Assembly (NCBI GenBank): GCA_020850415.1
Contig: JADZER010000010.1
Coordinates: 77,459-141,458 of the forward strand
Reading direction: 5' to 3'
DNA length: 64,000 nt
Source of the DNA: Phycisphaerales bacterium
Lineage (GTDB): Bacteria; Planctomycetota; Phycisphaerae; Phycisphaerales; UBA1924
Shown: positions 19,374 through 59,968 of the stretch, one piece after another
How the letters are laid out: every line of letters begins with the position of its first letter
Numbering within the stretch: position 1 is the first letter of the stretch
The notes under the pieces: model-generated
Database searches by the model: none
Told to the model about the DNA's origin: nothing
The model's input: the letters and a program-made list of their open reading frames with translations, nothing else
Program-made: the position numbers and the translations under genes

Positions 19374-19388
19374 GCTTGCGTCCCTGCG

Positions 19389-21143: not shown

Positions 21144-21190
21144 GGTGGCGATGCCTCCCGCCGCCCGGCGCGGCGTACCGTCGTGTCCGA

Positions 21191-22483
<1,293 letters not shown>

Positions 22484-40836: not shown

Positions 40837-41420
40837 TGACGAACGGAGTGGCCCCCATGCTCGCCGACCTCATTGCATCCCTGCGCATCGCGCTCGCTTC
40901 AATCCTCGTCTGCGTCGTCGGGTACGCCGGCGCCCTGCTCGGTGCGGCCTCCCTGCTCGCGCCCGAGAGCCGGCTCGGCCGGCTCCTCGAGATCGACGCC
41001 CAAGTCGTCGGCGCCCGGGACCTCGCCCAGGCGTTCACCCGCCCCGAGTACATCTGGCCACGCCCTTCCGCCGTGGACTACGCCGCGGATGCCACCGGCG
41101 GCAGCAACCTCTCCCCGGCCAATCCACAGATCCGCGAGCGGGCCGAGCCCCTGCTCGAGGCCCTCGGGGCCACGCCGGAGAACCCCGCCCCGGCCGAGCT
41201 CGTTCTCGCGTCGGGATCCGGCCTCGACCCGCACATCACCGAGGCCGCGGCCATCTTCCAGGCCGACCGAGTGGCCCGGGCTCGCGGCGTGACGCCCGGG
41301 GTTATCAGGGAGGCCATCGAGGCCCGGGCCCGGCCCATCGGCCCCGGGGACCCCGCCCGGGTCGTGAATGTCCTCTTGCTCAACATCGATCTCGACCGCA
41401 TCGCGCCCGCCGGGGATTGA
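40836..41420 (+). CDS. kdpC: K+-transporting ATPase subunit C
   Basis: A 194-aa protein with an N-terminal TM helix. KdpC motifs are present (FWPRPSA-like YIWPRPSAV, SGGSNLSPANP, ASGSGLDPHIT). The start overlaps the kdpB stop (TAATG). An alternative start lies at 40857. Confidence 0.9.
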   Translation: MTNGVAPMLADLIASLRIALASILVCVVGYAGALLGAASLLAPESRLGRLLEIDAQVVGARDLAQAFTRPEYIWPRPSAVDYAADATGGSNLSPANPQIRERAEPLLEALGATPENPAPAELVLASGSGLDPHITEAAAIFQADRVARARGVTPGVIREAIEARARPIGPGDPARVVNVLLLNIDLDRIAPAGD

Positions 41421-41453
41421 TCGGGCACAATAGCCAAGGCGAGATCGACTGCC

Positions 41454-44210: not shown

Positions 44211-44908
44211 CAGACCCCTCCCCCACAGTCCTGATCGTCGAAGACGAGCGAGCCATCCGCCGATTCCTGCGGCCCGCGCTCGAGGGCGAGGGATACCGAG
44301 TCCTCGAAGCCGACGACCAGCGCTCCGGGCTCGGCATGGCCTCCAGCCACACGCCCGACCTCATCATCCTCGACCTCGGGCTCCCCGATCGCGACGGCCT
44401 GGAGCTGATCCGGGCGGTGCGGGAATGGTCATCCATGCCGATCATCATCGTCTCCGCCCGCGGCCAGGACGCGGACAAGGTCAAGGCTCTCGACCTCGGC
44501 GCCGACGACTACCTCACCAAGCCGTTCAGCGTGCAGGAACTCCTGGCCCGCGTTCGAGCGGCCCTCCGGCGCAGCGCGGCCGTCCGCGATGCCGCGGACG
44601 GCTCGCCCGTCTTCGCGGTGGGGAGCCTCACGATCGACCTTGCCAAACGCCGAGTCACGCTCGCGGCCGAGCCCGTGACACTGACCCCGCTGGAGTTCAA
44701 GCTGCTCGCCGAACTCGCGAAGCACCCCGGCCGCGTGCTGACCCACAAAGCGCTCCTGGACGCCGTCTGGGGCCCCAGCCGATCGAAGGAACCCCACCTC
44801 GTACGCGTCCACATGGCCAACCTGCGCCGGAAGCTGGAAGCCGATACCACCAGGCCCCGGTACCTGCTGACCGAGCCCACGGTCGGCTACCGACTGGCGG
44901 ACGCCTGA
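44207..44908 (+). CDS. kdpE: OmpR-family response regulator KdpE
   Basis: GTG overlaps the kdpD stop (GTGA). The receiver domain has LIILDLGLPDRDG. A winged-helix output domain follows (LTPLEFKLLAELAKHPGRVLTH..VGYRL). Confidence 0.92.
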   Translation: MTDPSPTVLIVEDERAIRRFLRPALEGEGYRVLEADDQRSGLGMASSHTPDLIILDLGLPDRDGLELIRAVREWSSMPIIIVSARGQDADKVKALDLGADDYLTKPFSVQELLARVRAALRRSAAVRDAADGSPVFAVGSLTIDLAKRRVTLAAEPVTLTPLEFKLLAELAKHPGRVLTHKALLDAVWGPSRSKEPHLVRVHMANLRRKLEADTTRPRYLLTEPTVGYRLADA

Positions 44909-45317
44909 CGAGCAACGGGGGCCGACCCCTCCCCGCCAAGCCGCAACCACCACGGCGCGCCGGCCAGGGCGCCCCCGGGGCACTCAACGAGGTCGTCGTG
45001 CCCCTGGCGGGGCGAGTGACCGACCGGGCGAAGCCCCCGGCCCCCGCGCCAGCGGCCTCTGCGGGTGGCCTACCGGGGTGCTGGTCCGGCTCCCCGACGC
45101 TCGCGCGGGGGCCTGAGCAACCCCGGTTGCGTGGGTTCGCAGGACCGGGCCATCAGGAATGGTCAGCCAGCCGACCGCGTGGTCGGGCCGCAGGTCTCTG
45201 GCGTTGGGATCTCGTGGAACCCCCCGTCCCACCGTGGATCGCGGTGCGCGATAGACTCTCCCCTTGGGGGCACTGTCGCTGGACGGGGGCGCCGGTGTCG
45301 CGTCAGGAGGGACCACG

Positions 45318-47801
45318 GTGAGCGCGGATGGATGCCTGACCGCCGAGGCCCTCGAGGCGCTCGCAAAGGGAAGCGACCCGGACGGCGGAGCCCAGCGGCA
45401 TGTCGATGCCTGCGCCGCCTGTCGTGCCACGCTCGACGAGATCAGGGAGATCAACCGCTTCCTGGCCCGGTTCGCACCCGGCGGGGATCCAGGGCCCCCG
45501 CCGCCGGACGCGCCCTCCGAACAAGCCCCGCCGCCCGACCTCGTCCCCGGCTACGAGATCCTTGGAGAGATCCACCGCGGGGGCCAGGGGATCGTCTACC
45601 GGGCCCTGCAGCGCGAGACGCGGCGCACCGTCGCGATCAAGATGCTGCTGGCCGGGTCGCGGGCCTCGCCCCGCCAGCGGGAGCGGTTCGAGCGCGAGCT
45701 TCAGCTCGCAGCCGCGCTCCGACACCCCAACATCGTCACCGTCTACGACGGCGGGTATGTCGCCGGCGGGCGCTACGCCTTCGCCATGGAGCTCGTCGAG
45801 GGGCTGCGTCTCGACGAGTGGTCCCGGTCGCTGGATCATCTGCCGGGGCGCGACGCCCGGCGCAGGGCGCTGCGCGAGCGACTTGGCCTGATGATGAAGG
45901 TCTGCGACGCGGTGCTCTGCGCGCACCAGCATGCGGTCGTCCACCGCGACCTCAAACCCGCGAACATCCTGGTGGACGGCGCGGGGGAGCCGCACATCCT
46001 GGATTTCGGGATCGCCCGGAGCATCGCGCCCGAGGATCGACCGCGCCTGACCCTCACCGGAGAGTTCGCCGGAACCCTCGCCTACGCCTCTCCCGAGCAG
46101 GTCTCGGGGGACCCTGACCGTGTGGGCACCCCCACCGACATCTACTCGCTCGGTGTCCTCATGTATCAGGTCGTGAGTGGGCGCATGCCCTACCCGGTGG
46201 ACGGCCCTATCTCGCAGGCGGTGCGCAACATCGAGTCCGCCGAGCCGGCCCCGCTCCTCGGGCGGACCGCGACCGCCGACGGCCCCTTCGTCGATGGTGA
46301 GGTGTCCACGATCATCCTCAAGGCGATGGCAAAGGACCCGGCACGCCGTTACCAGACCGTCGCGGGTTTGCGCAACGACATCGCGAGATACCTGAGCGGC
46401 GAGCCCATCGAGGCGCGGGGCGATAGTACTTGGTACATCCTCCGCAAGTCCGCGCGCCGCTACCGCCTCGCGCTCGCAACGCTCGCGCTGGTCTTTCTCC
46501 TCGTCGCGGGCTTCGGCGCCGCGATGGCCTGGCAGGCGCACCGCATCGGTGTCGAGAGGGATGCCGCGGCCGCCGAGAGCGAGCGCGCCAGATCCGTCAC
46601 GGAGTTCGTCGTCAGCTCGCTCGTCTCTCAGGACCCTCACCAGGGCGGGACGCAGGACATGTCCGTCGCCGGTGCGATGATGCAGACGCTCGAGGGGCTC
46701 CGCAGCGGAGACCTCGACGCCCAGCCGGAGACCAGGGCGTTGCTCCTCCGCACCATCGCCCTGATCCTCGACGGAAACGGCCGCAGCGTCGACGCCGAGG
46801 CCCCCGCCCGTGAAGCGCTCGAGATCGAGCAGGGGCTCCACCCCGGCCCCGACGCCCATGTCGCCGAGAGCCTCGAGGCGCTGGGCGCGGTGCTCGAATC
46901 GCTCGGGCGTGTGCAGGAGGCCGAGCCCCTGTACGCCGAAGCCCTGGATATGCGCCGCCGCACGCTCGACGAGAGCGATCCGCAGATCGCCTCAAGCATC
47001 AACAGCCTCGCCGGTGTGCTCGATGCGCTCGGCGACACGGACTCGGCCGAGGCGTTGTATGTGGAGGCCCTCGCGGCGGTGCGCCGTGCCTTCAAGGGAG
47101 ACCACCCCTTCGTCGCCAACGCCCTGAATAATCTCGCATACATCCGACAGGCACGGGGCAGCGGAGAAGAGTCGCGCCGGCTCTACAAGGAATCGCTCGA
47201 CATGACCCGCCGGCTCTACCCCGGGAACCACCCGGAGATCGCGGACAGCCTCAATAACCTCGCCCACACCCTCCAGATGCTGGAGTGCTTCGACGAGGCC
47301 GAGCCGTTGTTCCTCGAATCCCTTGAGATGAACCAGGCCCTCTTCGCCGGGGACCACCCGAGCATCGCAGACAGCCTCAACAACCTGGGCCACCTCCGCT
47401 ACGAGACCGGCCGGCGCGAGGAGGCCGAAGAGCTGATCGGGCAGGCTCTTGAGATGAACAAACGCCTCTTCCCCGGCGATCACCCCGGAATCGCCACCAA
47501 CCTCAACAACCTCGCGTATGTGGAGGCAGGCCTCGGGCGCGCCCCCGCCGCCGAGCCCCACTACATCGAGGCCATTGCTATGTACCAACGCCTCTACGGC
47601 GAAGAGCACCCCGATACCGTGAGCTGCAGGGCGAACTACGCCCGCTGCCTCCACGCTCTCGGGCGCAAGGGGGAAGCCATGTCTGAGGCGACCAGTGCCC
47701 TGGAGGTGGCGGTGCGGACGCTGGAAGCAGACCACCCGACCCGTCTGAAGTGCGAGGAAGTAGTCGCCGAGCTGGGCCGAGCGGGGGCGGATGGGGAGTG
47801 A
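45318..47801 (+). CDS. Ser/Thr protein kinase with TM helix and C-terminal TPR repeats
   Basis: AGGAGG lies 7 nt before GTG 45318. There is an N-terminal Cys/His motif HVDACAACRATL. Kinase motifs are present (VVHRDLKPANILV, DFG, SPE), plus a TM helix (LALATLALVFLLVAGFGAAMAW). At least 7 TPR-like units carry a recurring LNNLA/LNNLG motif. Confidence 0.88.
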   Translation: MSADGCLTAEALEALAKGSDPDGGAQRHVDACAACRATLDEIREINRFLARFAPGGDPGPPPPDAPSEQAPPPDLVPGYEILGEIHRGGQGIVYRALQRETRRTVAIKMLLAGSRASPRQRERFERELQLAAALRHPNIVTVYDGGYVAGGRYAFAMELVEGLRLDEWSRSLDHLPGRDARRRALRERLGLMMKVCDAVLCAHQHAVVHRDLKPANILVDGAGEPHILDFGIARSIAPEDRPRLTLTGEFAGTLAYASPEQVSGDPDRVGTPTDIYSLGVLMYQVVSGRMPYPVDGPISQAVRNIESAEPAPLLGRTATADGPFVDGEVSTIILKAMAKDPARRYQTVAGLRNDIARYLSGEPIEARGDSTWYILRKSARRYRLALATLALVFLLVAGFGAAMAWQAHRIGVERDAAAAESERARSVTEFVVSSLVSQDPHQGGTQDMSVAGAMMQTLEGLRSGDLDAQPETRALLLRTIALILDGNGRSVDAEAPAREALEIEQGLHPGPDAHVAESLEALGAVLESLGRVQEAEPLYAEALDMRRRTLDESDPQIASSINSLAGVLDALGDTDSAEALYVEALAAVRRAFKGDHPFVANALNNLAYIRQARGSGEESRRLYKESLDMTRRLYPGNHPEIADSLNNLAHTLQMLECFDEAEPLFLESLEMNQALFAGDHPSIADSLNNLGHLRYETGRREEAEELIGQALEMNKRLFPGDHPGIATNLNNLAYVEAGLGRAPAAEPHYIEAIAMYQRLYGEEHPDTVSCRANYARCLHALGRKGEAMSEATSALEVAVRTLEADHPTRLKCEEVVAELGRAGADGE

Positions 47802-48185: not shown

Positions 48186-48881
48186 ATGCAGCTCGGAGTC
48201 CGGGATGTCGCGTCCCAGTTCGGCGTGTCGGACAAGGTGGTTCTCCGGTGGGTCGACGAAGAGGGCCTGCCGGCGTCGAAGGTGGACGGGCAGTACCGCT
48301 TCAACCCGTCGGCCCTGTTCGAATGGGCCACCGGCCGGGGCATGCAGGTCCCGCCCGCGCTCTTCCGCGAGCCGCAGAACGGAGACCGCGAGGTCCTGCC
48401 GGACCTGGTTGATGCACTCCGCGCCGGTGGTGTGGTGCGAGACATCCCGGGGACCGACAAACGGTCGGTGCTGGCGGCGCTGATCGGGCACCTGCAGCTC
48501 CCCCGGAATGTCGACCGGGACGGGCTGCTGCAGATCGTCATGGCCCGGGAGCAGCTCGGCTCGACCGGGATCGGCGAGGGGATCGCGATCCCCCATGTGC
48601 GGAACCCGATCGTGCTCCGCGTGCCCAAGCCGATGCTCCTGCTCGGACTGCTTCAACAACCGATCGACTACGGGGCCGTCGACCGCAACCCGGTCCATTC
48701 GCTGTTCCTGGTCATCACCCCGACGACACGCTCCCACCTGCACATCCTCTCCCGGCTTGGGTACATCCTGCAGGACCGTGGCATCCGTGAATTGCTCAAG
48801 AGCCGCGCCCCCTCGGAGCAGTTGCTGGGCGCGATGGCGGCGGTCGAGTCGAAGATCCCTCACTCTGCCAAGACTGGATGA
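48186..48881 (+). CDS. HTH (excisionase/MerR-like) + PTS EIIA type-2 (PtsN-like) fusion regulator
   Basis: The N-terminal LGVRDVASQFGVSDKVVLRWVDEEGLPASKVDGQYRF is HTH-like. The C-terminal EIIA-2 fold carries GEGIAIPHVR (candidate phosphorylatable His). It stops 7 nt before the first gene of the Hyf-like cluster. Confidence 0.8.
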   Translation: MQLGVRDVASQFGVSDKVVLRWVDEEGLPASKVDGQYRFNPSALFEWATGRGMQVPPALFREPQNGDREVLPDLVDALRAGGVVRDIPGTDKRSVLAALIGHLQLPRNVDRDGLLQIVMAREQLGSTGIGEGIAIPHVRNPIVLRVPKPMLLLGLLQQPIDYGAVDRNPVHSLFLVITPTTRSHLHILSRLGYILQDRGIRELLKSRAPSEQLLGAMAAVESKIPHSAKTG

Positions 48882-48887
48882 ACCGAC

Positions 48888-50942
48888 ATGGGGGGTGACC
48901 CCGAGCACAGCTTGGTATCGCTCCTGGCGGTCTGGCTCCCCCTTGTCGGGGCCGCGATCGTCGGGGCGAGCGGGCTGCCGGGGCTCTTCTTGGCTCGAAG
49001 GTCGGCGCCGGGGGCGTGGACGGCGGCGGTCCTCCACCTGCTCGGCGCCGCGGCGGCGCTCGGGGGGGCGGCCGCGTCCGTCGTCACCGTGGGCGCGACA
49101 TCCCTGGATCTGCCGTGGGGGCTGCCCTTCGGTTCATTCCGGGTCGAGCTCGACGGGCTGAGCGCCGCGTTCTTGGTGCCGCTCGCCCTCGTGCCGGCGC
49201 TCGGGTCGGTCTACGGGCTGCGGTATTGGAGCCCGCGGGCGCACCCCGACACCAGCAGGAAGCTGCGGGTGTTCTACGGGATCCTCGCCGCCTCCCTGAT
49301 CCTCCTCACTGTCGCGCGTGACGGCGTGCTCTTCCTGTTCGCCTGGGAGGGGATGGCGCTCTCCGCGTTCTTCCTCGTCACGATCGACGACCGCGACGAC
49401 CAGGCCCGGTCCGCCGGATGGGTGTACTTCGTCGCCACCCATGTCGGCACCCTCGCGCTGTTCGGGCTCCTCGCGGCGGTCGCTTCGGCCGGCGGCTCAT
49501 TCGGGCTCGACCCGCTGCCCGACACGGCGGCGCCCCTCGGGGTGGGGACGGTCATCTTCCTGCTCGGCCTCATCGGGTTCGGTCTGAAGGCGGGGATCAT
49601 GCCGCTGCATGTGTGGCTCCCCGGTGCGCACGCGGTGGCGCCGAGCCATGTGTCCGCGGTGCTCTCGGGGGTCGTGCTCAAGGTCGGTATCTACGGGCTG
49701 GCGAGGCTGACCTGCATGCTGCCCCATCCCCCCGTGTTCTGGGGCGGGCTCCTGCTCACGCTCGGCGTGGTCAGCGGCATCGTCGGTGTGCTCTTCGCGG
49801 TGGCGCAGCATGACCTCAAGCGGCTGCTCGCCTACCACAGCATCGAGAACATCGGGATCATCACCATGGGCCTCGGGCTGGCGATGCTCGGCCGTTCCTA
49901 CGGGCGCGCGGATTGGATGGCGCTGGGGCTCGGGGGCGCCATCCTCCATGTCTGGAATCACGCCTTTTTCAAGTCGCTCCTGTTCATGGCGGCCGGGGCG
50001 GTGATCCACCGGGTGCACACCCGCGAGATCGACCGGATGGGCGGCCTCGCCAGGTCGATGCCGATCACCGGCGCGCTGTTCCTGTGTGGGGCGGTCGCCA
50101 TCTGTGGCCTGCCGCCCCTCAACGGGTTCGTCAGTGAGCTGCTGATCTATCTCGGACTCCTTCGGACGGTGCAGCCGATCGACGGCGTCGCCGCGGCCGG
50201 AGCGGCGTTCGCCGTGCCCGCGCTGGCGATCATCGGCGCTCTGGCCGTCGCGTGCTTCGTGAAGGTCTTCGGCGCGGTCTTCCTGGGCTCCCCGCGGGAG
50301 CATCACGACGCGACCCCGTCAGAGGCTCCGGGGTCGATGCTCGCGCCGATGCTGGTGCTCGCGGCGGTGTGCGTGGGGATCGGGGCGCTGCCCGCTCTGG
50401 CGCTGCCGTTCCTCGATGCCGCCGCACGCGCATGGTCGGTGGGAGCGCACGCGGAGGCGCTGCCGCTGGGCCTGCTCGCGCCCCTGTGGTGGGTCAGTGC
50501 GCTCGCCGGCGCCACATGGCTGTTCGCCATTCTCCTGGCGCTGGGCCTGCGGCGCCTCGTGCGACCGCCCGGCGCGGCCCGCGTGGGCACTTGGGACTGC
50601 GGGTATGCCGCGCCGTCCGCGCGGATGCAGTACACGGCTTCGTCGTTCGCGCAGATCCTCGTGGGGCTGTTCGCGTCGGTGCTGCACCCCCGCGAGCGAC
50701 GCCCCCGCGTGGGCCGCCTGTTCCCCCGAGGCAGAAGCTACAGCAGCCATGTGCACGATGTCGTGCTGGCGGAGTGGGTTGTGCCCGCCGTCGCGGTGCT
50801 GGCGCGCCAGGCCGCGCGCCTCCGGATCATCCAGGCCGGTCACATCCAGCTGTACATCCTCTATGTTCTCCTTATCGTGATCGCGCTCGTGCTGTCGGCC
50901 GTGCCGCTCCTTGACCTGCTGCGGAGCCTTGTCACGCGATGA
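48888..50942 (+). CDS. Hyf/Ehr complex antiporter-like subunit (HyfB/NuoL-like), copy 1
   Basis: A 684-aa polytopic Mrp/NuoL-type proton-conducting membrane transporter (GIMPLHVWLPGAHAVAPSHVSAVLSGVVLKVGIYG, LLAYHSIENIG). Confidence 0.9.
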   Translation: MGGDPEHSLVSLLAVWLPLVGAAIVGASGLPGLFLARRSAPGAWTAAVLHLLGAAAALGGAAASVVTVGATSLDLPWGLPFGSFRVELDGLSAAFLVPLALVPALGSVYGLRYWSPRAHPDTSRKLRVFYGILAASLILLTVARDGVLFLFAWEGMALSAFFLVTIDDRDDQARSAGWVYFVATHVGTLALFGLLAAVASAGGSFGLDPLPDTAAPLGVGTVIFLLGLIGFGLKAGIMPLHVWLPGAHAVAPSHVSAVLSGVVLKVGIYGLARLTCMLPHPPVFWGGLLLTLGVVSGIVGVLFAVAQHDLKRLLAYHSIENIGIITMGLGLAMLGRSYGRADWMALGLGGAILHVWNHAFFKSLLFMAAGAVIHRVHTREIDRMGGLARSMPITGALFLCGAVAICGLPPLNGFVSELLIYLGLLRTVQPIDGVAAAGAAFAVPALAIIGALAVACFVKVFGAVFLGSPREHHDATPSEAPGSMLAPMLVLAAVCVGIGALPALALPFLDAAARAWSVGAHAEALPLGLLAPLWWVSALAGATWLFAILLALGLRRLVRPPGAARVGTWDCGYAAPSARMQYTASSFAQILVGLFASVLHPRERRPRVGRLFPRGRSYSSHVHDVVLAEWVVPAVAVLARQAARLRIIQAGHIQLYILYVLLIVIALVLSAVPLLDLLRSLVTR

Positions 50943-52918
50943 GACCGATCGAACTCATCCTGGTCGCGGCGGCGCTGCAGGCGTGCAGCGGACTCCCCGG
51001 GCTGCTGGGGACCGGGCCGTCCCGATGGGGCGAGCGGACGGCCGCCGCCATGTTCGCCCTCGCCGCCGCGCTCGGGATGCTGGGCGTGCTCCTGCCGGCG
51101 GACGGGACCGACACACCACTCTCGGCGTCGTGGGGGCTGCCCGGGGGGGACCTCGCGGTCGCGATCGACCCCGTGAGCCGCGCCTTCCTGTTGCCGGTGC
51201 TTCTGATTCCCGCGCTCGGCGCGGTCTACGGCCTCGGGTATTGGCGCCAGGCCGACCACCCGACCAACGGGCGGAAGCTCAGGGTGTTCTACGGCTTGAT
51301 GCCGGCGGCGATGACCGTCGTCGTCCTGGCGCAAAACGGGATCGTGTTCCTGATGGCGTGGGAGGTCATGGCGATCGCCGGGTTCTTCCTGGTGAGCACC
51401 GAGGACGACCAGCGGGCGTCCCGAGAGGCCGCGTGGGTGTACTTCATCGCGGCGCACCTCGGGACATTGTGCCTGTTCGGGATGTTCGCGGTGCTGCACA
51501 GCGCCGCGGGGTCCTTTGACTTTGACGCCATCGCCGCCTCGCGCATGGCCCCGCCGCTGACCACCGCCGCGTTCCTGCTCGGTCTGATGGGATTCGGGAT
51601 AAAGGCGGGCCTCATGCCGCTGCATGTGTGGTTGCCCGGGGCGCACGCGAACGCTCCGAGCCATGTCTCGGCGGTGCTCTCCGGCGTGATGCTTAAGATG
51701 GGCATCTACGGCCTGGTCAGGATGACCTCGCTCCTCCCGGCACCGCCGACATGGTGGGGCGGCGCCCTGCTGGCGCTCGGGGCCGTCTCCGCGATCCTCG
51801 GCCTGGTGTTCGCGATGGCGCAGCACGACCTCAAGCGCCTGCTGGCGTACAGCAGCATCGAGAATGTCGGTGTCATCACGATCGGGCTGGGCCTGGCGCT
51901 GCTGGGCCGCTCGACGGGGAACCCGGCCTGGGCGGTTCTCGGCCTGGGGGGGGCCATCCTCCATGTCTGGAATCACAGCCTGTTCAAGCCGTTGCTGTTC
52001 TTCGGGGCCGGCTCGATCCTGCACGGCGCGGGGACGAGGCAGATCGATCACCTCGGCGGGCTCTCACGCCGAATGCCGCGGACGGCCGGGCTCTTCCTGG
52101 TCGGTTGCGTGGCGATCTGCGCCCTGCCCCCCCTCAACGGCTTCGCCAGCGAGTTGCTGATCTACCTGGGTCTGCTCGGCACGCTGGACGGACAGGGCGG
52201 GCTTCCATCCGCGGCCGCCGTGGTCCCGGTGCTCGCGCTGGCCGGAGGGTTGGCCGCCGTCGCGTTCGCCAAGCTCTTCGGAACGGCATTCCTCGGGGAG
52301 CCGCGGACCGAGACCGCGCGGCACGCGCACGAGTCTCCGCTCGCGATGATCCTCCCCATGTCAGTTCTCGCCGCGCTCTGCGTCGCGGTCGGGGCGTTCG
52401 CCGCCGTCCTGGCCCCGCTCCTCGATCGGGCGATCGCGGGCTGGTGGTCGGCGGTCGGCACGCAGGTTCCGTCGGTGGTGGAGGTCTCGCCCCTGCGGTG
52501 GTTGCCGCTCACCAGCGCGGCGATCTTCCTGGTGTCCGGCGTCGCCATCGTCGCGCTCCGCCGGGCCATGCGCACCACGGCGATCCGCCCGGGCACATGG
52601 GACTGCGGGTACGCCGAGCCCAGCCCCCGGATGCAGTACACCGGCTCGTCCTTCTCGCAGTTTGCGGGGTCTCTCTTCTCGTGGGCCCTGCTCCCCCGCG
52701 TCGACGCGCCGAGGATCAGAGGGCTGTTCCCGCCGACCGGCCGCTTCCGATCGGAGGTGCCCGACGCGGTCCTCGACCGGATGGTGCTCCCATCGGCACG
52801 CCTGGCCACGCATTTCCTGCGCTGGGCGCGCGTGCTCCAGCGGGGCAAGATCCAGATCTACATGCTGTATGTCCTGCTGACGGTGCTCGCCCTGTTCGTC
52901 TCAACCTTTGTGCTGTAG
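50939..52918 (+). CDS. Hyf/Ehr complex antiporter-like subunit (HyfB/HyfD-like), copy 2
   Basis: A 659-aa paralog of the upstream gene (GLMPLHVWLPGAHANAPSHVSAVLSGVMLKMGIYG, LLAYSSIENVG). ATGA overlap with copy 1. Confidence 0.9.
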   Translation: MRPIELILVAAALQACSGLPGLLGTGPSRWGERTAAAMFALAAALGMLGVLLPADGTDTPLSASWGLPGGDLAVAIDPVSRAFLLPVLLIPALGAVYGLGYWRQADHPTNGRKLRVFYGLMPAAMTVVVLAQNGIVFLMAWEVMAIAGFFLVSTEDDQRASREAAWVYFIAAHLGTLCLFGMFAVLHSAAGSFDFDAIAASRMAPPLTTAAFLLGLMGFGIKAGLMPLHVWLPGAHANAPSHVSAVLSGVMLKMGIYGLVRMTSLLPAPPTWWGGALLALGAVSAILGLVFAMAQHDLKRLLAYSSIENVGVITIGLGLALLGRSTGNPAWAVLGLGGAILHVWNHSLFKPLLFFGAGSILHGAGTRQIDHLGGLSRRMPRTAGLFLVGCVAICALPPLNGFASELLIYLGLLGTLDGQGGLPSAAAVVPVLALAGGLAAVAFAKLFGTAFLGEPRTETARHAHESPLAMILPMSVLAALCVAVGAFAAVLAPLLDRAIAGWWSAVGTQVPSVVEVSPLRWLPLTSAAIFLVSGVAIVALRRAMRTTAIRPGTWDCGYAEPSPRMQYTGSSFSQFAGSLFSWALLPRVDAPRIRGLFPPTGRFRSEVPDAVLDRMVLPSARLATHFLRWARVLQRGKIQIYMLYVLLTVLALFVSTFVL

Positions 52919-53046
52919 AGGAACCAACGCATGACAGCGTCGCGCCTGCCGACTCTTGACGATCCGGGATGCCGCCGGGCGGGTTGCGCTCGCTGCGGCC
53001 GGCCGGGCGCTCCGCACGCCCTCGGCGGCCCGATGGGGGATGCTCC

Positions 53047-53964
53047 ATGATCGACACGGCTGTGCAGGTTGTGCTGCTCCTGGTGATGCCGCCCCTGCTG
53101 CTCGGCGTGATCACCAAGACCAAGGCCGCGATCGCGGGCAGGGTCGGGGCCCCGCTCCTGCAGCCGTACCACGACATCATCAAGCTCCTCCGCAAGGGCT
53201 CGGTCCTGAGCCGCACGACCACCTGGGTCTTCCTCGCCGGCCCCGCGGTCACATGCGCCGCGGTGCTTCTGGCGGGCCTCCTGGTCCCCATGGGCGGCCA
53301 GCCGGCCCCGATCCGGTTCGCCGGCGACCTGATCCTCTTCGCGTACCTGCTCGCCCTGGGGAGGTTCTTCACCACGATCGCCGCGCTCGATACCGGCTCC
53401 TCGTTCGAGGGGATGGGGGCGGCGCGCGAGGTAACCTTCGCCTGCCTCGCGGAGCCGGCGCTGTTCTTCGGGCTCCTGGCCCTGGCCAGGCTGACCGAGG
53501 GGCTGAGCCTCTCGGCGTTCTTCGGCCCGGGTGTCGCCAGCGCGTGGGTCGATGCCGCCCCGAGCATGGTGCTCGTCCTCGCGGGCCTCTTCATCGTGCT
53601 GCTCGCCGAGAACTCACGCATCCCCTTCGACGACCCGAACACCCACCTCGAGCTAACGATGATCCACGAGGTCATGGTGCTCGACCACGGCGGACCGGCG
53701 CTGGGCACGGTCCTGTACGGCGCGGCGGTCAAGCTCTTCGTCCTCTCCTCGCTCGTGGCGCGCCTGGCCGTCCCGATGGAAACCGGCCAGCCCCTGCTGC
53801 GGTGGCCGGTGTTCATCGCTTCCGTGCTCATGGTCGCGGTAGTGATCGGGCTGGTCGAATCGACCATGGCGAGGCTGCGGCTGCTGCATGTGCCCAACCT
53901 CCTTGTGGGCGCGTGCCTGCTGACCGGGTTCGGGTTCATCCTTCTTCTGGGGTCGCCGCGATGA
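53047..53964 (+). CDS. Hyf/Ehr complex membrane subunit (HyfC/HycD/NuoH-like)
   Basis: The N-terminus MIDTAVQVVLLLVMPPLLLGVITKTKAAIAGRVGAPLLQPYHDIIKLL matches the HycD/NuoH layout. It also contains the ENSRIPFD and EL.MIHE motifs. Confidence 0.9.
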   Translation: MIDTAVQVVLLLVMPPLLLGVITKTKAAIAGRVGAPLLQPYHDIIKLLRKGSVLSRTTTWVFLAGPAVTCAAVLLAGLLVPMGGQPAPIRFAGDLILFAYLLALGRFFTTIAALDTGSSFEGMGAAREVTFACLAEPALFFGLLALARLTEGLSLSAFFGPGVASAWVDAAPSMVLVLAGLFIVLLAENSRIPFDDPNTHLELTMIHEVMVLDHGGPALGTVLYGAAVKLFVLSSLVARLAVPMETGQPLLRWPVFIASVLMVAVVIGLVESTMARLRLLHVPNLLVGACLLTGFGFILLLGSPR

Positions 53965-54602
53965 GTTCCGCCACCGACGCGCTCTTGGTCCTGATCCTCC
54001 TGCTGAACTTCTTCGTGCTCGGTTCCAGCCGGATCCGCTCCATCATCTACACGATCGCCGCGCAGGGCCTGCTGCTGGGTGTTCTGCCCCTGCTGGTGCA
54101 CGAGAGCATCGGCGTGCGCGAGGGGCTGGTGAGCGTCGGCGCGATCGCGCTCAAGTCCGTCGTGATCCCGCGCATGCTCCTGCGGGCGATGGCCGACCTC
54201 CCGATCCGGCGCGAGATCGAGCCGCTCGTGGGCTACCGCACCTCGCTGCTGCTCGGCGCCGCCGCCACGGGCGCGTCGATGGCGCTGGCCGCCCGTTTGC
54301 CGCTGGAGATCGTCCACCCGCCGCCGCTGCTCGTCCCGGCCTCGTTCGCCACGGTCCTCACCGGGTTCATCGTGCTGACCACCCGCACCAAGGCCATCAC
54401 GCAGGTGCTGGGGTACCTGATGCTGGAGAACGGCATCTTCATCTTCGGGGTGCTGCTGCTCGAGGCGATGCCGTTCCTGGTCGAGGTCGGGGTGCTGCTG
54501 GACCTCTTCGTCGCGATCTTCGTGATGGGGATCATCATCAACCACATCAGCCGAGAGTTCGCGTCGGTCAGCACCGAGCGCCTGGCGGAGCTGAGAGAAT
54601 GA
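53961..54602 (+). CDS. Hyf/Ehr complex membrane subunit (HyfE-like)
   Basis: A 213-aa hydrophobic protein with ATGA overlap to the upstream gene. The LMLENGIFIFGVLL motif is typical of HyfE/hydrogenase-4 component E. Confidence 0.85.
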   Translation: MSSATDALLVLILLLNFFVLGSSRIRSIIYTIAAQGLLLGVLPLLVHESIGVREGLVSVGAIALKSVVIPRMLLRAMADLPIRREIEPLVGYRTSLLLGAAATGASMALAARLPLEIVHPPPLLVPASFATVLTGFIVLTTRTKAITQVLGYLMLENGIFIFGVLLLEAMPFLVEVGVLLDLFVAIFVMGIIINHISREFASVSTERLAELRE

Positions 54603-56041
54603 TACTCGCACTCACACTGGCCGGTGTCCCCCTGTGCGGCGCGGCGATCGCGTACGCCATCCCGTCGAACACGGCGCGACCACTGGTGCTGCCCGTGTGC
54701 GCGCTCGCGCACCTGGCCGCGGCAGTGGCGGCGTTCGCGGGGGTTGACGCGGGCGCCGGCTGGCTCGCCCTCGACCCGCCGGGCCGGCTCGTGCTGCTCC
54801 TGGTGAGCGTCCTCTTCGCCGCCTGCTCGTTCTACGCAGTGGGGTACCTCCGGCTCCGTGGCGAGCGCGACAACAAGGTGTTCTGCGCCTGCCTGCTGGC
54901 GTTCCTGGGCATGACGAGCCTGATCGCCTGCGCCCAGCATCTCGGGCTCTTCTGGGTCGCGGTCGAGGCGACCACGCTCTCCAGCGCACCGCTGCTGTAC
55001 TTCAACCGCACGGGGCATTCGCTCGAAGCGACATGGAAGTACCTGCTCATCGGCTCGGTGGGGATCGCGCTCGCGCTGCTCGGGTCGCTCTTCCTCGGCT
55101 ACTCGGCTCTGGCCGGGGGCCAGGACTCCTCGCTCCTCTTCGATGACCTGGTCAGGAACGCCCCGAGCTTCTCCAAACCGTGGCTCCACGGCGCGTTCAT
55201 CCTCCTCTTCGTCGGCTACGGCACGAAGATGGGCCTCGCGCCCATGCACACATGGAAGCCCGACGCCTACGGCGAGACCCCCGGCGTTGTCGGCGCCCTG
55301 CTCGCCGGAGGATTGACCAGCTGCGCCTTCCTGGGCATCGTCCGGACATTCCGTGTGGTGGTCGCGGCCGGCGAGGCCGAGTTCGCCAGCCAGATCCTGG
55401 TGGTCATGGGCGTCGTGTCGATGGCGGTCGCCGGGGTGTTCATGGTGCAGCAACGAGACTTCAAACGCATGCTGGCCTACTCCAGCGTCGAGCACATGGG
55501 GCTGCTGATCCTGGGCCTGGGCCTGGGGCCCGTGGGCGCGTACGGCTCGCTCCTGCACATGGTGAACAACGGCCTGGTCAAGGGCGTTATGTTCCTCACC
55601 GCGGGCAACATCCATCGCGCCTACGAGAGCAAGTCGACCGACGAAGTCTCGGGCGCGCTCCGGAGGCTGCCATGGTCCGGCGGGCTCTTTCTCGCCGGAT
55701 TCATCGCCGTGACGGGATCCCCGCCCTTCGCCCCGTTCGTCAGCGAATTCACCATCCTGAACGCAGCCATCGGCGAGGGACGGTACATCATCGGCGGCCT
55801 CATGCTCGTACTCCTCCTGGTGATCTTCATGGGGATGGGGGCGACCGTCCTGGCGGTCGTGCAGGGACAACCATCGGCGCGAGCGAAGCGGACACCCTTC
55901 CATGACCGGGCCATCACGATCCTGCCCCCGCTCGTGCTGATGACCGGCGTGGTCATCCTTGGCCTCTTCGTGCCCGCGCCGCTGCGCCGCACGATCGAAG
56001 AGGCCGTGCGATTCCTCGGATTCCCGGAGCCCCAGCCGTGA
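54599..56041 (+). CDS. Hyf/Ehr complex antiporter-like subunit (HyfF/NuoN-M-like)
   Basis: A 480-aa polytopic protein (GLAPMHTWKPDAYGETP, MLAYSSVEHMG). ATGA overlap upstream and GTGA overlap downstream. Confidence 0.9.
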   Translation: MILALTLAGVPLCGAAIAYAIPSNTARPLVLPVCALAHLAAAVAAFAGVDAGAGWLALDPPGRLVLLLVSVLFAACSFYAVGYLRLRGERDNKVFCACLLAFLGMTSLIACAQHLGLFWVAVEATTLSSAPLLYFNRTGHSLEATWKYLLIGSVGIALALLGSLFLGYSALAGGQDSSLLFDDLVRNAPSFSKPWLHGAFILLFVGYGTKMGLAPMHTWKPDAYGETPGVVGALLAGGLTSCAFLGIVRTFRVVVAAGEAEFASQILVVMGVVSMAVAGVFMVQQRDFKRMLAYSSVEHMGLLILGLGLGPVGAYGSLLHMVNNGLVKGVMFLTAGNIHRAYESKSTDEVSGALRRLPWSGGLFLAGFIAVTGSPPFAPFVSEFTILNAAIGEGRYIIGGLMLVLLLVIFMGMGATVLAVVQGQPSARAKRTPFHDRAITILPPLVLMTGVVILGLFVPAPLRRTIEEAVRFLGFPEPQP

Positions 56042-57567
56042 TCAATGTGTCCCGCTTCCTCACGATGGGCAACGCCGACCCGGTGGAGCACAGCGATATC
56101 CCCGTGCTGCCGTTCGACCAGTTCAGATCCGATGTCGTCGGGGCAATCGCCGATGGGCTCCGCCTCGGGGCCCTGACCGCCCGCGCCGAGAGCGACCACT
56201 CCGTGCGCATCTACGCGGTCCTGCTCGACGACCTGACGGGCTTGATCCACGCCGCCAGCGCGACAACCCCGCACGGCTCGTTCCCGTCCCTCACGCCGGA
56301 CTGCCCCCAGGCGCACCTGTTCGAGCGAGAGATCACCGAGCAGCTCGGGGTCGAGCCCCGCGGCCACCCATGGCTGAAGCCGGTCCGCTTTCACGCGGCC
56401 TACTCCGGACGCCCCCAGCCGTGGGCCGGCCCCGACGGGGCGCCTCCCCTCATCGGTGTCACCGACTACTTCAGGGTGGAGGGCGACGAGGTGCACGAGG
56501 TCGCCGTGGGCCCGGTCCACGCCGGGATCATCGAGCCGGGGCACTTCCGGTTCCAGTGCCACGGCGAGGAAGTGTTCCACCTGGAGATCTCGCTCGGCTA
56601 CCAGCACCGCGGGATCGAGCGTCGCCTCCTGGGCGGGCCGGACCGGCGCACCATCCACTACTTCGAAACGCTGGCCGGCGATACCACGGTCGGTCACACC
56701 ATGGCGTACTGCCACGCCGTCGAGGCCCTGATCGGCCTCCATGCCCCGGCCCGAGCGCAGGCCCTGCGCGGCATCGCCCTCGAGCTGGAGCGCCTGGCCA
56801 ACCATGTCGGCGACCTCGGCGCCCTGGCGGGGGATGTGGGCTTCCTGCCCACCGCCGCGTACTGCGGCCGCCTCCGCGGGGACTTCCTGAACATGACCGC
56901 GGCGATGTGCGGGAGCCGCTTCGGCCGGGACCTCGTCCGCCCGGGCGGCGTGGTCTTCGATCTCGAGCCCGAGCAGGTCGGCGCCCTCACCAGCCGCCTC
57001 GCCGACGCCGAACGAGACACCGCCTCGGCGGTCAACCTGCTGTGGAACACCCCGTCCGTCATGGCGCGGCTCGAAGACACCGGCCGGCTCGAGCGCGGCA
57101 CCGCCGAGAGCATCGGGCTCGTCGGGCCCGCCGCACGGGCGTGCGGGATCAGCCGCGATGTACGCCACGACTTCCCATCCGGGATCTACCAGTTCAGCCA
57201 CCTGCCGGTCTCCACATGGGGCACCGGCGATGTGTTTGCCCGTGCGTATGTGCGCTGGCTGGAGATTCAGCAGTCGATCCGGTTCATCCGCGAGCAGCTC
57301 CAGGTGCTGCCCGGGGGGCCCTGCATCGCGGAGGTGGGCCCCCTGCCGCCGGGCCGGTTCGTGGTCTCGCTGATCGAGGGCTGGCGCGGCGAGATCTGTC
57401 ACATCGCGACGACCGGCCCCGACGGCGCCTTCGCCCACTACAAGGTGATCGACCCCTCGTTCCACAACTGGTTCGGGCTGGCGCTCGCCCTCCGCGGGCA
57501 ACAGATCTCGGACTTTCCCCTCTGCAACAAGAGCTTCAACCTGTCGTACTCGGGGCATGACCTCTAG
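56038..57567 (+). CDS. NuoC-NuoD/HycE-like 'large subunit' lacking NiFe-binding cysteines (Ehr-type)
   Basis: GPVHAGIIEPGHFRF and LGYQHRGIE place it in the group-4 hydrogenase/NuoD family. Where HycE-type proteins have R.CG.C...H, this protein has LAGDTTVGH. The C-terminus is DFPLCNKSFNLSYSGHDL instead of DPC..C. Confidence 0.9.
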   Translation: MINVSRFLTMGNADPVEHSDIPVLPFDQFRSDVVGAIADGLRLGALTARAESDHSVRIYAVLLDDLTGLIHAASATTPHGSFPSLTPDCPQAHLFEREITEQLGVEPRGHPWLKPVRFHAAYSGRPQPWAGPDGAPPLIGVTDYFRVEGDEVHEVAVGPVHAGIIEPGHFRFQCHGEEVFHLEISLGYQHRGIERRLLGGPDRRTIHYFETLAGDTTVGHTMAYCHAVEALIGLHAPARAQALRGIALELERLANHVGDLGALAGDVGFLPTAAYCGRLRGDFLNMTAAMCGSRFGRDLVRPGGVVFDLEPEQVGALTSRLADAERDTASAVNLLWNTPSVMARLEDTGRLERGTAESIGLVGPAARACGISRDVRHDFPSGIYQFSHLPVSTWGTGDVFARAYVRWLEIQQSIRFIREQLQVLPGGPCIAEVGPLPPGRFVVSLIEGWRGEICHIATTGPDGAFAHYKVIDPSFHNWFGLALALRGQQISDFPLCNKSFNLSYSGHDL

Positions 57568-57819
57568 CCCCGCCCGGTGACCGCCCCGAGGAGGCCCCAT
57601 GCAGACCGACAAGACCAGCCTCGCACACCTGCCGGGGCACTACCCCCACGCCGCAGGAAGCGCCGAGGTGAGCAGAGACCCGCGCAGCCGATGGCCTCGA
57701 TGCGTTCGCGCTCTCACGCTCGCCGGCTGTGACACCCTCGGGGGCCCCGGACGACGACGCGGCGTGCCGCTCCCCCCATCGAGGCGAGCGCCGCCGCAAT
57801 CCGGATCGGAGACCCAACA

Positions 57820-58605
57820 GTGATCCATGTGCTTCTGGCCCGCTACCGTCAACGACACCGGACGATGCGCTACCCGGCCGGCCCGCCGCCCGAACTGCCC
57901 GCCCACTTCCGCGGCCGGCCGACCATCGACGCGGCCAGGTGCCCCCCGGCGTGCCGCGAGTGTGCCGAGGCCTGCCCAACGCAGGCGATCACGATCAACG
58001 GGACGCCCCGGATCGACCTGGGCCGATGCCTCTTCTGCACGGACTGCCTGCGGGCATGCCCGTCCGACGCGATCGCGTTCTCGCGCGACTATCGGCTCTC
58101 GACGGACACGCGTGAAGCGCTCGTCATGGAGGACAATGTGCTCGAACTGGCCCGAGGACTCCAGGGAAAGACGCGACGCCTCTTCGGCAGATCGCTCAAG
58201 CTCCGTCAGGTGTCGGCCGGCGGGTGCAACGGCTGCGAGATGGACACCAATGTCCTGAGCACCATCGGCTGGGACCTGGCCCGGTTCGGCATCCAGTTCG
58301 TCGCCTCGCCGCGCCACGCCGACGGCCTCCTCGTCACCGGCTGCGTGACGGAGAACATGCAGCTCGCGCTGCAAAAGACCTACGACGCGTTAACACCGCC
58401 GAAGATCGTCATCGCCGTCGGGGCCTGCGCGATCTCCGGGGGACCATTCATCGATCACCCCGAAGGCCACAACGGCGTCACCGGGCGGCTCCCCGTCGAC
58501 CTGTTCATCCCCGGGTGCCCGCCGCACCCGCTGACCATCCTCGACGGCCTGCTGCGGTTCCTGGGCCGGATCGACCCGGAGCCGACCCCCGGGCAACGCA
58601 CATGA
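57820..58605 (+). CDS. Fusion of 2x[4Fe-4S] ferredoxin (HycF/NuoI-like) and NuoB/HycG-like small subunit
   Basis: The N-terminal half carries CPPACRECAEACP and CLFCTDCLRACP. The C-terminal half carries GGCNGCE, GACAISGG and GCPPHP, which together supply the four Cys of the N2-type cluster. The start is GTG at 57820. Confidence 0.88.
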   Translation: MIHVLLARYRQRHRTMRYPAGPPPELPAHFRGRPTIDAARCPPACRECAEACPTQAITINGTPRIDLGRCLFCTDCLRACPSDAIAFSRDYRLSTDTREALVMEDNVLELARGLQGKTRRLFGRSLKLRQVSAGGCNGCEMDTNVLSTIGWDLARFGIQFVASPRHADGLLVTGCVTENMQLALQKTYDALTPPKIVIAVGACAISGGPFIDHPEGHNGVTGRLPVDLFIPGCPPHPLTILDGLLRFLGRIDPEPTPGQRT

Positions 58606-58798
58606 GCCAACCTCCGACCTGCGACGCCAGCCGCTCCACGCCCGCTCCCCTGGCGTGGATGCGCCCGCGTTGGGCAGCGTCGGACCCCTGATCGGGGCTC
58701 TCCCCCTCCCCGCGCCACGGCCGGCGCTCCATACCCTGTGCACCCCGACCACGAGAGCCCCCGGCACAGAGAACGGGGCAGGTCGCAAGGATCAGACG

Positions 58799-59968
58799 AT
58801 GTTCGTTGCCCAAGCCCATTCCTTCACGCAGCAGGCCCGGCTCGCGATCTCGCTTGCCTGGGTCGCCGGCTACACCAACATCCTGACGGTTATCACCTGC
58901 GGCACGGTCACATCGCATCTATCCGGGACCGCCTCGAATCTTGGTCGGCAAGTCGCCGAGGGTTCGTGGTCGCTCGCGTGGTTCTCGTTCCTCCTGCTCG
59001 TGGCCTTTGTCCTCGGTGCGATGGCGTCCGGAGCGCTCACCGAACTGGGCCGCCGCCGCGGGTGGGAGTCGATCTATGTGCTCCCGATCGCCGTGGAAGC
59101 GGTCCTCCTGGCGGCATTCGCCGTGGGGGTGGAGGTGCACGATCACGGAACCCGCCAGAGCGGCGTTCCGCTCTACTGGCTCACCGGCATCGCGTCGTGC
59201 GCCATGGGATTGCAGAACGGGACCATCACACGCATCTCGTCCGGAGTCGTCCGCACCACGCACATCACAGGGGTGCTGACGGACCTGGGCCTTGAGACAA
59301 CCCAGTTCCTCCTGTGGGCACGCGATCGCGGCCGCGATTCCCCGCCCGTGCCGCCGCGCTCGTTGCTGCGCAGCGCGAGCGTTCACCCCACCGCGCGGCG
59401 GCTGGCGCTCCTGGCATCAATCGTCGGGTCGTTCGCCGTCGGCGGTGGCCTGGGCACACTCGCGCACGGGTTCGCCGAGCGGTGGGCGATGTTCCCCCCC
59501 GTCGTCTTCTTGATATGGCTCATCTACAGGGACCTGGTCATTCCCATCGCGGAAGTCGAGCCGTCGGAACTCGTGGGTGGAGAGAACGGTCTGCAACTGC
59601 CGACGACCATGGCGGTCTTTCATGTGCGCAACGAGAAGGACCATCGCGGCAAGGCGCACCGCATGCCCGACCTGCAGGCGTGGGGAGAACGGCTACCCGC
59701 AACCGTGCGGGTGGTCGTGCTCGATCTGGGGGAAATGGCCACATTCGACAGCAACGCGGTCATGGAACTGCGCGCGGTGCTCAGGAGCTTCGCGACGCAG
59801 AACAGGAAGCTGCTGATCACGGGACTGGGCTTCGAGCAGTTCCAGGAACTCCGCCGAGTCGGCTCGACCGAGTTCCTCGACCTGACCAACTTCTGTCCGG
59901 ACCTCGAGCTCGCGATCGCCCGGGCAATGATCATGGTCGAGAGCATCCCCGCGCCCAACCGCGCGTGA
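58799..59968 (+). CDS. DUF1275/YoaK-family membrane protein fused to a C-terminal STAS domain
   Basis: The membrane half has the YoaK-like motifs VTSHLSGTASNLG and GLQNGTITRISSGVVRTTHITGVLTDLG. The C-terminal ~110 aa look STAS-like (VVVLDLGEMATFDSNAVMELRAVL...LLITGL). ATG at 58799 is chosen inside track ORF 58655..59968. Confidence 0.72.
   Translation: MFVAQAHSFTQQARLAISLAWVAGYTNILTVITCGTVTSHLSGTASNLGRQVAEGSWSLAWFSFLLLVAFVLGAMASGALTELGRRRGWESIYVLPIAVEAVLLAAFAVGVEVHDHGTRQSGVPLYWLTGIASCAMGLQNGTITRISSGVVRTTHITGVLTDLGLETTQFLLWARDRGRDSPPVPPRSLLRSASVHPTARRLALLASIVGSFAVGGGLGTLAHGFAERWAMFPPVVFLIWLIYRDLVIPIAEVEPSELVGGENGLQLPTTMAVFHVRNEKDHRGKAHRMPDLQAWGERLPATVRVVVLDLGEMATFDSNAVMELRAVLRSFATQNRKLLITGLGFEQFQELRRVGSTEFLDLTNFCPDLELAIARAMIMVESIPAPNRA

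Follow-up and report, generated by a model that had tools for sequence, protein, structure and literature searches.

What remains of a membrane-bound hydrogenase once its metal site is gone, and what might the remainder still do? The question is raised by an operon in a 64,000-nucleotide stretch of genome from a Phycisphaerales bacterium of the Planctomycetota (GenBank assembly GCA_020850415.1, contig JADZER010000010.1, positions 77,459 to 141,458). This whole 64-kb stretch is called the window here; coordinates follow window numbering, and the gene labels g0 to g8 are our own. Between 48.2 and 58.6 kb the window holds one operon encoding an Ehr-type (energy-converting hydrogenase-related) complex, whose first gene encodes a helix-turn-helix (HTH) protein with an EIIA(Ntr)-type domain. 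An earlier, sequence-only reading of the locus had proposed an Ehr complex with a regulator of its own and a large subunit unable to bind NiFe. The gene layout and subunit identities given there were borne out by Pfam and NCBIfam hidden Markov model (HMM) searches, and the complex almost certainly belongs to the known Ehr family. What is new is that the HTH-EIIA(Ntr) gene is a conserved partner of Ehr across many phyla. Literature searches found no link between EIIA or PtsN and Ehr or Hyf-type complexes.

The large subunit, g6 (56038-57567, + strand; EhrL-type), joins NuoC-like and NuoD-like regions in the manner of HycE (Pfam Complex1_30kDa and Complex1_49kDa). Its closest solved structure is E. 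coli HycE (7z0s_E, 3.4e-47), followed by MbhL (5.8e-33), Nqo4 (9.6e-33) and MbsL (6u8y_L, 4.9e-18). All four NiFe-binding cysteines of HycE are replaced in g6, C241 by A213, C244 by T216, and those of the C-terminal CxxC by S503 and G506. The same four positions are replaced throughout the 120 closest database homologues (62-94% identity), and the L1 CxxC motif occurs in none of these 121 sequences, whose family signatures are ETLAGDT[TS][IV]GH and DFPLCNKSFNLSY[C/S]GHDL. No exact match to g6 is on record; the closest genome, GCA_964268965.1 (locus L001), has a 94% identical copy.

An HMMER search over 1.84 billion representative sequences returned 974 relatives of g6 at E<=1e-30. Among those fetched at full length, cysteine-less forms reach down to approximately 34-40% identity, and the closest relatives that still bear the ligands (ICG[VA]C...ELCY[SA]C) are P0359, P0362 and P0376, at 37-39% identity. 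A neighbour-joining tree places g6 inside a cysteine-less "AGDT" clade, beyond which stand a second cysteine-less clade, "SGDS" (P0365 is one such relative), and the three true hydrogenases just named; E. coli HycE and HyfG fall outside, with NuoCD as the outgroup. The tree agrees with the Ehr identity first proposed for the locus, as the ligand-bearing relatives, about 38% identical, lie outside the cysteine-less clade. P0359, P0362 and P0376, which are 4f-like, share with g6 the C-terminal motif DFPL.NKSF.L.Y..D[LR], an EPGHFRF loop and overall length, while g6 has AGDT and NLSYSG where they carry cysteines. The contigs encoding P0359 and P0365 are only 2-3 kb long.

Database labels tell another story, because many cysteine-less homologues, P0013 and P0006 among them, carry the label "hydrogenase, group IVf" or the label "Ni,Fe-hydrogenase III large subunit." An anammox genome paper likewise reports a group 4f enzyme (PMC6828613). 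Taken at face value, such labels would make the window complex a genuine H2-evolving group 4 (Hyf/4f) [NiFe] hydrogenase, a view with which the best NCBIfam matches (hydrogenase-4 subunits) and the closest structure (HycE) agree. However, the four metal-binding cysteines are replaced in g6 and its 120 closest homologues, neither hyp genes nor hycI occur in the window, and the NCBIfam scores of the cluster subunits all lie under the curated cut-offs. This explanation is extremely improbable and, barring measured H2 activity, is ruled out by the sequence itself. Systematic mis-annotation as group 4f hydrogenase can inflate estimates of H2 metabolism in metagenome surveys.

Conserved residues of the clade suggest what may have taken the place of the metal. 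Both cysteine-less clades have Asp215 throughout, in the middle of what was once the CxxC, whereas true hydrogenases and NuoCD have Val, Ala, Ile or Leu there. Cys174 and Cys496 are invariant in the AGDT clade and specific to it; position 505 is Cys in 91 of the 121 sequences, a residue again specific to the clade, and Ser in the window. Asp215, Cys174, Cys496 and Cys/Ser505 may form a replacement active site, and we regard them as candidates for that role.

Outside the large subunit, the subunit set of a minimal Ech/Hyf-type enzyme is fully present. The small subunit, g7 (57820-58605, +; EhrS-type), fuses a HycF/NuoI-like domain for two [4Fe-4S] clusters (two Fer4 motifs; HycF tblastn match 57862-58131) to a HycG/NuoB-like domain (Oxidored_q6, 5.9e-27; HycG match 58120-58575). 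The two ferredoxin-type clusters and the proximal cluster of NuoB type have 12 cysteines between them, all of which are kept in 67 small subunits from many phyla, in the motifs C-x3-C-x2-C-x3-CP, C-x2-C-x2-C-x3-CP, and GGCNxCE (GGCNGCE in the window), GACAISGG and PGCPPHP. Conservation of this extent indicates a redox function under selection.

The membrane arm contains three antiporter-like subunits. Two are tandem HyfB/NuoL-type proteins (EhrA-type), g1 (48888-50942, +; Proton_antipo_M 1.9e-54, NCBIfam hydrogenase 4 subunit B 4.4e-167) and g2 (50939-52918, +; 4.4e-54 and 3.7e-171), which are 51% identical to each other and are therefore old paralogues and no recent duplication. The third, g5 (54599-56041, +), is of the HyfF/NuoN-M type (EhrD-type; HyfF model 4.4e-91). 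Between them are encoded a NuoH/HyfC/HycD-like subunit, g3 (52969-53964, +; EhrB-type; Pfam NADHdh 1.1e-34, tblastn HycD 3.7e-30), and a small HyfE-like subunit with some six hydrophobic segments, g4 (53961-54602, +; EhrC-type; NCBIfam PRK11492 3.8e-22, under its curated cut-off; tblastn HyfE 1.8e-05). At the sites of the Glu of transmembrane helix (TM) 5, the Lys of TM7 and TM8, the His/Lys of TM11 and the Glu of TM12, g1 has E154, K234, K265, H354/H358/K362 and E417, in alignment with functional residues of NuoL/M/N and HyfB. The corresponding residues kept in g2 are E142, K222, K253, H342/H346/K350 and E405. Those kept in g5 are E123, K210, K328 and E383, its TM8 position being Ser, comparable to Asn in E. 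coli HyfF. With Fe-S clusters and proton-path residues conserved and NiFe lost, the complex has kept its electron wire and a complete proton arm, and the original catalytic site is gone.

E. coli Hyf has homologues of its HyfB, C, E, F, G, H and I in the window, in the same order and at 29-37% identity, and g1, g2 and g5 have counterparts of the charged residues in HyfB and HyfF. The window differs in that a second HyfB-like gene replaces HyfD, the equivalents of HyfH and HyfI are fused, and the NiFe ligands, HyfA/HycB, HyfJ/HycH, HycI, HyfR and FocB of Hyf and Hyc are missing; its regulator is an HTH-EIIA protein, as against the sigma-54 activator of Hyf. Complex I shares the L-shaped modular design, with homologues of NuoB, C, D, H, I and L/M/N and the proton-path residues, but its NuoE/F/G input module and NuoA/J/K have no counterpart. 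The cluster is not an ordinary Nuo complex: no NuoA/E/F/G/J/K is encoded in the window, and Gly214 and an Ile stand in g6 for the Tyr and His of the quinone site. A precedent is offered by the Pyrococcus complexes MBX and MBS (membrane-bound sulfane reductase), group-4 hydrogenase derivatives that lost NiFe chemistry but stayed ferredoxin-driven ion pumps, with another acceptor. They are only distantly related to the window complex, being archaeal, with a 13-subunit Mrp-type membrane arm, although MbsL is a detectable homologue; unlike MBX and MBS, the window complex shows no evidence of sulfur chemistry.

Relatives of g6 in databases number more than 8000 at E<=1e-20, the best matches being from metagenome-assembled genomes of Phycisphaerales. 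With one genome scanned per species, carriers were found in at least 596 GTDB species and more than 12 phyla, including Planctomycetota, Verrucomicrobiota, Acidobacteriota, Desulfobacterota, Spirochaetota, Elusimicrobiota, Fibrobacterota, Gemmatimonadota, Chlamydiota, Omnitrophota, Hydrogenedentota, Riflebacteria and Myxococcota; a gene-context look-up added Methylomirabilota. Cultured carriers include Geomonas limicola, Geomonas agri, Citrifermentans bremense, Pelotalea chapellei and Geothrix paludis, and the large subunits of Geomonas, Citrifermentans and Pelotalea are 57-60% identical to g6. Geomonas limicola (58% identity) shows the same gene order as the window, the EIIA gene included. 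At two loci (L050, 13251-20569; L067, 2268-10004), a second, more distant Ehr cluster adjoins the window-type cluster, its large subunit being of the cysteine-less SGDS type and about 530 residues long; two Ehr paralogue systems thus occur side by side in some genomes.

A documented Ehr complex is that of Geobacter sulfurreducens, in which ehrA-2 (GSU0734) and ehrA-1, B, C, D, L and so on (GSU0739-0745, EhrL being GSU0743) make up the same subunit set (PMC7894505 supplement; PMC8691401). As in the window, there are two NuoL-like subunits, one NuoH-like, one HyfE-like and one HyfF-like subunit, and the large and small subunits. The NuoL-like genes are tandem within one operon in the window, whereas one is set apart in G. 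sulfurreducens. Orthology of the two systems is suggested by way of other Geobacterales, G. sulfurreducens itself not being among the matches listed. Published descriptions of Ehr note that the CxxC motifs are lacking and the function is not known (PMC6349859, PMC10284858, PMC6728331, PMC10432482, bioRxiv 10.1101/765248).

E. coli K-12 Hyc, Hyf, Hyp, FdhF, FocB, FhlA, HydN and Nuo proteins were searched by tblastn against all 64 kb at E<=1e-3. All core Hyc and Hyf subunits match at 49.1-58.6 kb only. HypA-F, HycI, HycH/HyfJ, HycA, HycB/HyfA, FdhF, FocB, FhlA/HyfR and HydN find no match anywhere in the 64 kb, nor do NuoA/E/F/G/H/J/K, although HycD and HyfC do match g3; the earlier statement that the window lacks fdhF, hyp genes, hycI and a formate channel was thus correct. 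The surroundings of related loci were surveyed by tallying Pfam families in 127 upstream and 134 downstream genes (261 in all). The commonest families occur at merely three to four loci each, and among the families listed there is no recurrent partner: no formate dehydrogenase, hyp, nuoEFG or ferredoxin oxidoreductase. Likewise, hycI, fdhF and focB are not among the sampled flanking genes.

These results bear on a proposal drawn from the literature, that Ehr is the membrane module of a formate-oxidising complex (FDH-Ehr), fed by a separately encoded formate dehydrogenase (FDH) and analogous to formate hydrogenlyase. The G. sulfurreducens Ehr subunits were all detected, and were most abundant in cells grown on formate (PMC7894505); an FDH-Ehr complex was proposed for Margulisbacteria and Saganbacteria (PMC6349859); and in Methylocystis a "group 4f" cluster is induced together with formate dehydrogenases (bioRxiv 10.1101/2025.08.29.672306). 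Yet no homologue of fdhF, hycB/hyfA, focB or fhlA/hyfR occurs in the window, no molybdopterin family is among the recurrent Pfam families listed for the 261 flanking genes, and the HycB/HyfA-type connector that tethers FdhF in formate hydrogenlyase is missing. We consider a formate-oxidising role for the window complex quite improbable.

A few scattered genes in the same flanks concern inorganic carbon, anions or cations. SulP with STAS is found at three loci, TrkA_N or ion-channel genes at two, and P-II at two. DabA with a DabB-like gene lies beside one Ehr operon, downstream (L011, 3782-8451), and a beta-carbonic anhydrase gene is divergent from another in Brocadiia (L002, 3354-4133). The inorganic-carbon and anion neighbours are so few that no association can be claimed. 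A role in CO2 hydration or in the uptake of inorganic carbon, as played by cyanobacterial NDH-1MS or DabAB, would account for the carbonic anhydrase, DabA, SulP and P-II genes, but each is found at no more than three of about 70 loci, there is no conserved partner of the CupA/DabA type, and none of these genes occurs in the window. Such a function is very improbable.

The one consistent neighbour is the regulator. The protein encoded by g0 (48186-48881, +), 231 residues long, has an N-terminal excisionase/MerR-like winged HTH (Pfam HTH_17, 1.6e-08) and a C-terminal EIIA-Ntr-like domain (PTS_EIIA_2, 2e-23). Its closest solved structure is PtsN (5.9e-16), with which it shares the fold and the GxGxAIPH phospho-histidine motif, GEGIAIPH137 in g0; H137 and H184 are invariant in 40 homologues. 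Unlike the stand-alone PtsN of about 160 residues, g0 is fused to an HTH domain and is the first gene of an Ehr operon, and it scores 65.9 bits against the PtsN equivalog model TIGR01419, whose cut-off is 138.7. An AlphaFold2 (AF2) model of g0, with a predicted local distance difference test score (pLDDT) of 86.5, shows an N-terminal winged-helix domain joined by a disordered linker to an EIIA domain. Foldseek returned PtsN structures first (TM score 0.80-0.82), followed by the cytoplasmic regulatory domains of SLC4 exchangers.

Brocadiia and Methylomirabilota, as well as a Phycisphaerae genome, also have a g0-like gene directly upstream of the operon. The open reading frames (ORFs) of 84 loci were searched with the window proteins; in 55 of the loci, the sequence ahead of the first HyfB-like gene extends for 900 nt or more. 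An EIIA gene adjoins a HyfB-like gene in 41 of the 55, arranged as EIIA-B, as B-EIIA-B or as a divergent EIIA-B pair, each time beside the HyfB-like gene and often with overlapping stop and start codons. A test in the reverse direction gave the same picture. Homologues of g0 number 2541 at E<=1e-10, and three EIIA homologues of 49-61% identity on long contigs (one of 3.8 Mb, one from Lentisphaeria and one from Candidatus Eisenbacteria) all lie immediately upstream of an Ehr operon. The regulator that the sequence-only reading assigned to this one complex is a partner conserved across phyla, and a functional link between HTH-EIIA and Ehr is very probable.

Upstream of the EIIA gene, many loci have a tandem direct repeat, (A/T)TGTC(C/T)A-N4-(A/T)TGTC(C/T)A. 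It comprises two or four boxes with a period of 10-11 bp, situated about 40-52 nt before the EIIA start codon and just 3' of a TTGACA hexamer. A strict tandem TGTCYA repeat is present in 11 of 47 upstream regions, as compared with 7 of 2350 control segments, and in 19 of the 47, six of which were outside its training set, a position weight matrix gives a score beyond the controls' 99th percentile, with the site at an almost fixed distance of ~50 nt from the start codon. Loci with the repeat include L008, L010, L016, L019, L009, L013, L034, L004, L060, L023 and L031. Excisionase/MerR-like winged helices (Xis, BldC) bind direct repeats head to tail. The TGTCCA repeat is a candidate operator of the HTH-EIIA regulator.

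We lean, at somewhat better than even confidence, towards a complex that would act as a ferredoxin-linked, non-hydrogen redox-driven ion pump under PTS-Ntr-type (phosphotransferase system) control, descended from a group-4 (4f-like) [NiFe] hydrogenase. A low-potential soluble carrier would dock on the HycF/NuoI-like 2x[4Fe-4S] domain; ferredoxin is the most likely candidate, and the chance that it is the partner seems about even. No partner dehydrogenase or HycB/HyfA connector is encoded in the window, and none recurs in the sampled flanks of related loci, which fits direct docking of a soluble carrier, as in Ech, Mbh and NDH-1. Electrons would reach the proximal cluster and be handed to an acceptor other than H+ at the interface of the large subunit and HyfC. 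Our best guess at the acceptor is membrane menaquinone, although a quinone as the other partner is a tentative proposal, with the balance against it. The redox step would drive H+ or Na+ through HyfC/HyfE and the three antiporter-like subunits, whose number suggests a large free-energy span, such as that from ferredoxin to menaquinone. The machine might also run in reverse, with proton-motive force used to make reduced ferredoxin. As to control, the regulator most likely binds the operon promoter (which has TGTCCA repeats in many relatives) and is switched by phosphorylation of His137, which an NPr/HPr-type protein would carry out. Such a switch would tie expression of the pump, and possibly its activity, to phosphoenolpyruvate, nitrogen or K+ status.

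Several observations weigh against this picture. No experiment has identified the substrate of Ehr complexes (PMC6349859, PMC10284858, PMC6728331). Tyr87 of the complex I quinone site (T. thermophilus Nqo4 numbering) corresponds to the invariant Gly214 of g6, and His38 to Ile164/165; the quinone Tyr of E. coli NuoCD likewise aligns with Gly214. With Tyr and His both missing, a canonical quinone site is unlikely, and quinone reduction would need another site. The AF2 model of g6, made from a 12-sequence alignment, is poor (pLDDT 59.9, and below 50 for residues 135-216 and 477-509, the former active site). On the regulatory side, an EIIA gene is not nearby in 14 of the 55 loci, and the window's own promoter region has no TGTCCA repeats, nor does that of L001; a search of the window for the operator found none near the operon and three matches elsewhere, at chance level. 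Finally, the tight coupling of EIIA and HyfB-like genes and their constant co-travel would also fit a subunit-like or docking role for the EIIA protein, in place of that of a pure transcription factor.

This last point leads to a different conception, a redox-independent or redox-gated Mrp-type cation/proton antiporter for pH, Na+ or K+ homeostasis, in which the peripheral arm would have a structural or a sensing part. The transporter itself would be the target of the EIIA-Ntr-like protein, as TrkA and KdpD are of PtsN in E. coli. The charged residues are intact in the three Mrp/NuoL-type subunits, there is no conserved redox partner gene in the window or the sampled flanks of related loci, the EIIA gene keeps its place beside a HyfB-like gene with stop and start codons that often overlap, and the EIIA fold matches the regulatory cytoplasmic domains of SLC4 exchangers. 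Genes for kdpA, kdpB, kdpD and a kdpE-like response regulator (36953-44908, +) lie 3-11 kb upstream of the operon, and TrkA_N or ion-channel genes flank two loci. The Methylocystis "group 4f" cluster, which may or may not belong to the clade, is induced 4.2-4.5 log2-fold at pH 5 (bioRxiv 10.1101/2025.08.29.672306). On the other side, the 12 Fe-S cysteines kept in 67 small subunits are hard to explain without electron transfer, and the HTH domain speaks for DNA binding. The kdp operon was rejected as a functional neighbour because the kdp/kinase neighbourhood differs even in the 94%-identical L001. An antiporter of this kind is unlikely.

A bolder proposal is that the HTH-EIIA/Ehr pair forms an unrecognised circuit present in many phyla, a PTS-type phosphorelay governing a complex-I-like machine. 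Beyond transcriptional control, the EIIA domain could dock in a phosphorylation-dependent manner on the HyfB-type subunit encoded next to it, much as PtsN docks on TrkA and KdpD; domains with the EIIA fold also regulate SLC4 exchangers. We hold this to be fairly unlikely. If true, Ehr would be a PTS-gated device for redox or ion homeostasis, unlike a conventional respiratory enzyme.

Some details of the operon and its surroundings remain to be described. The ORF map, translations and junction sequences show g0 to g8 as a co-directional block on the + strand. The sequence-only reading had described tightly packed genes with five ATGA/GTGA junctions. Four are 4-nt overlaps as described (ATGA at 50939, 53961 and 54599, GTGA at 56038), but the fifth, at 48881/48888, is a 6-nt spacer between g0 and g1. 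For g3, translation probably begins at the ATG at 53047, which gives 305 residues, as in L001, and a 128-nt gap behind g2. Between g6 and g7 the gap is 252 nt, and holds an overlooked ORF of 74 codons (57599-57823, +) with a strong Shine-Dalgarno sequence (GAGGAGG) and a GTGA overlap with g7. Its counterpart in L001 is called as a 77-residue gene, but the interior diverges, with indels of -4 and +13 nt that shift the frame locally, which makes a conserved protein doubtful. It has no Pfam match, is not present in the Brocadiia and Methylomirabilota loci, and in comparison with G. sulfurreducens Ehr is specific to the lineage of the window; it is of uncertain status, a translated spacer or no gene. 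Scanning for sigma-70 promoters gave none, and terminator-like sites were no commoner than chance. A sigma-54-like GG-N10-GC element upstream of g0 was rejected by eye, its spacing being off by 2. Rfam found no RNA family within 44-64 kb.

Downstream lies g8 (58655-59968, +), a DUF1275 (YoaK-like) membrane protein (Pfam 2.8e-31) with a sub-threshold C-terminal STAS match (17.6 bits against a cut-off of 22.6). Its start is probably at 58799, giving 389 residues as in L001; the distance to g7 would then be about 190 nt, and the two genes would not be coupled. The suggestion that this gene might offer a regulatory clue did not hold up, as among the 84 loci a DUF1275-STAS gene recurs downstream only in L001 and, weakly, in L045 (Leptospiraceae). 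It was rejected as part of the system and probably stands outside it, merely flanking. Directly upstream of g0 is a Ser/Thr kinase gene with TPR repeats (45264-47801, +). Elsewhere the window encodes ABC permeases, an RND efflux pair, a SpoIIE phosphatase and Ser/Thr kinases. Two adjacent large PPDK_N-domain proteins (16170-21215 and 21191-22531, both on the - strand), beside glutamate dehydrogenase, are not homologues of PTS enzyme I. At the end of the window (62001-64000), G+C falls to 0.60, as against about 0.69-0.72 elsewhere, with no tRNAs and with short ORFs that have no Pfam match.

Ehr complexes stand in evolution between group-4 hydrogenases and complex I, and occur in hundreds of species, ranging from Geobacter relatives and comammox Nitrospira to Planctomycetota and Mycobacterium. 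The window itself holds no new chemistry; comparison with related loci adds a conserved EIIA(Ntr)-type regulator with an invariant phospho-histidine and, in many lineages, a candidate operator. With these, the function of Ehr is now experimentally approachable in cultured Geobacterales and in Geothrix, which carries the large subunit. The signal that switches the regulator would reveal when Ehr is needed, and so offers the shortest route to its substrates.

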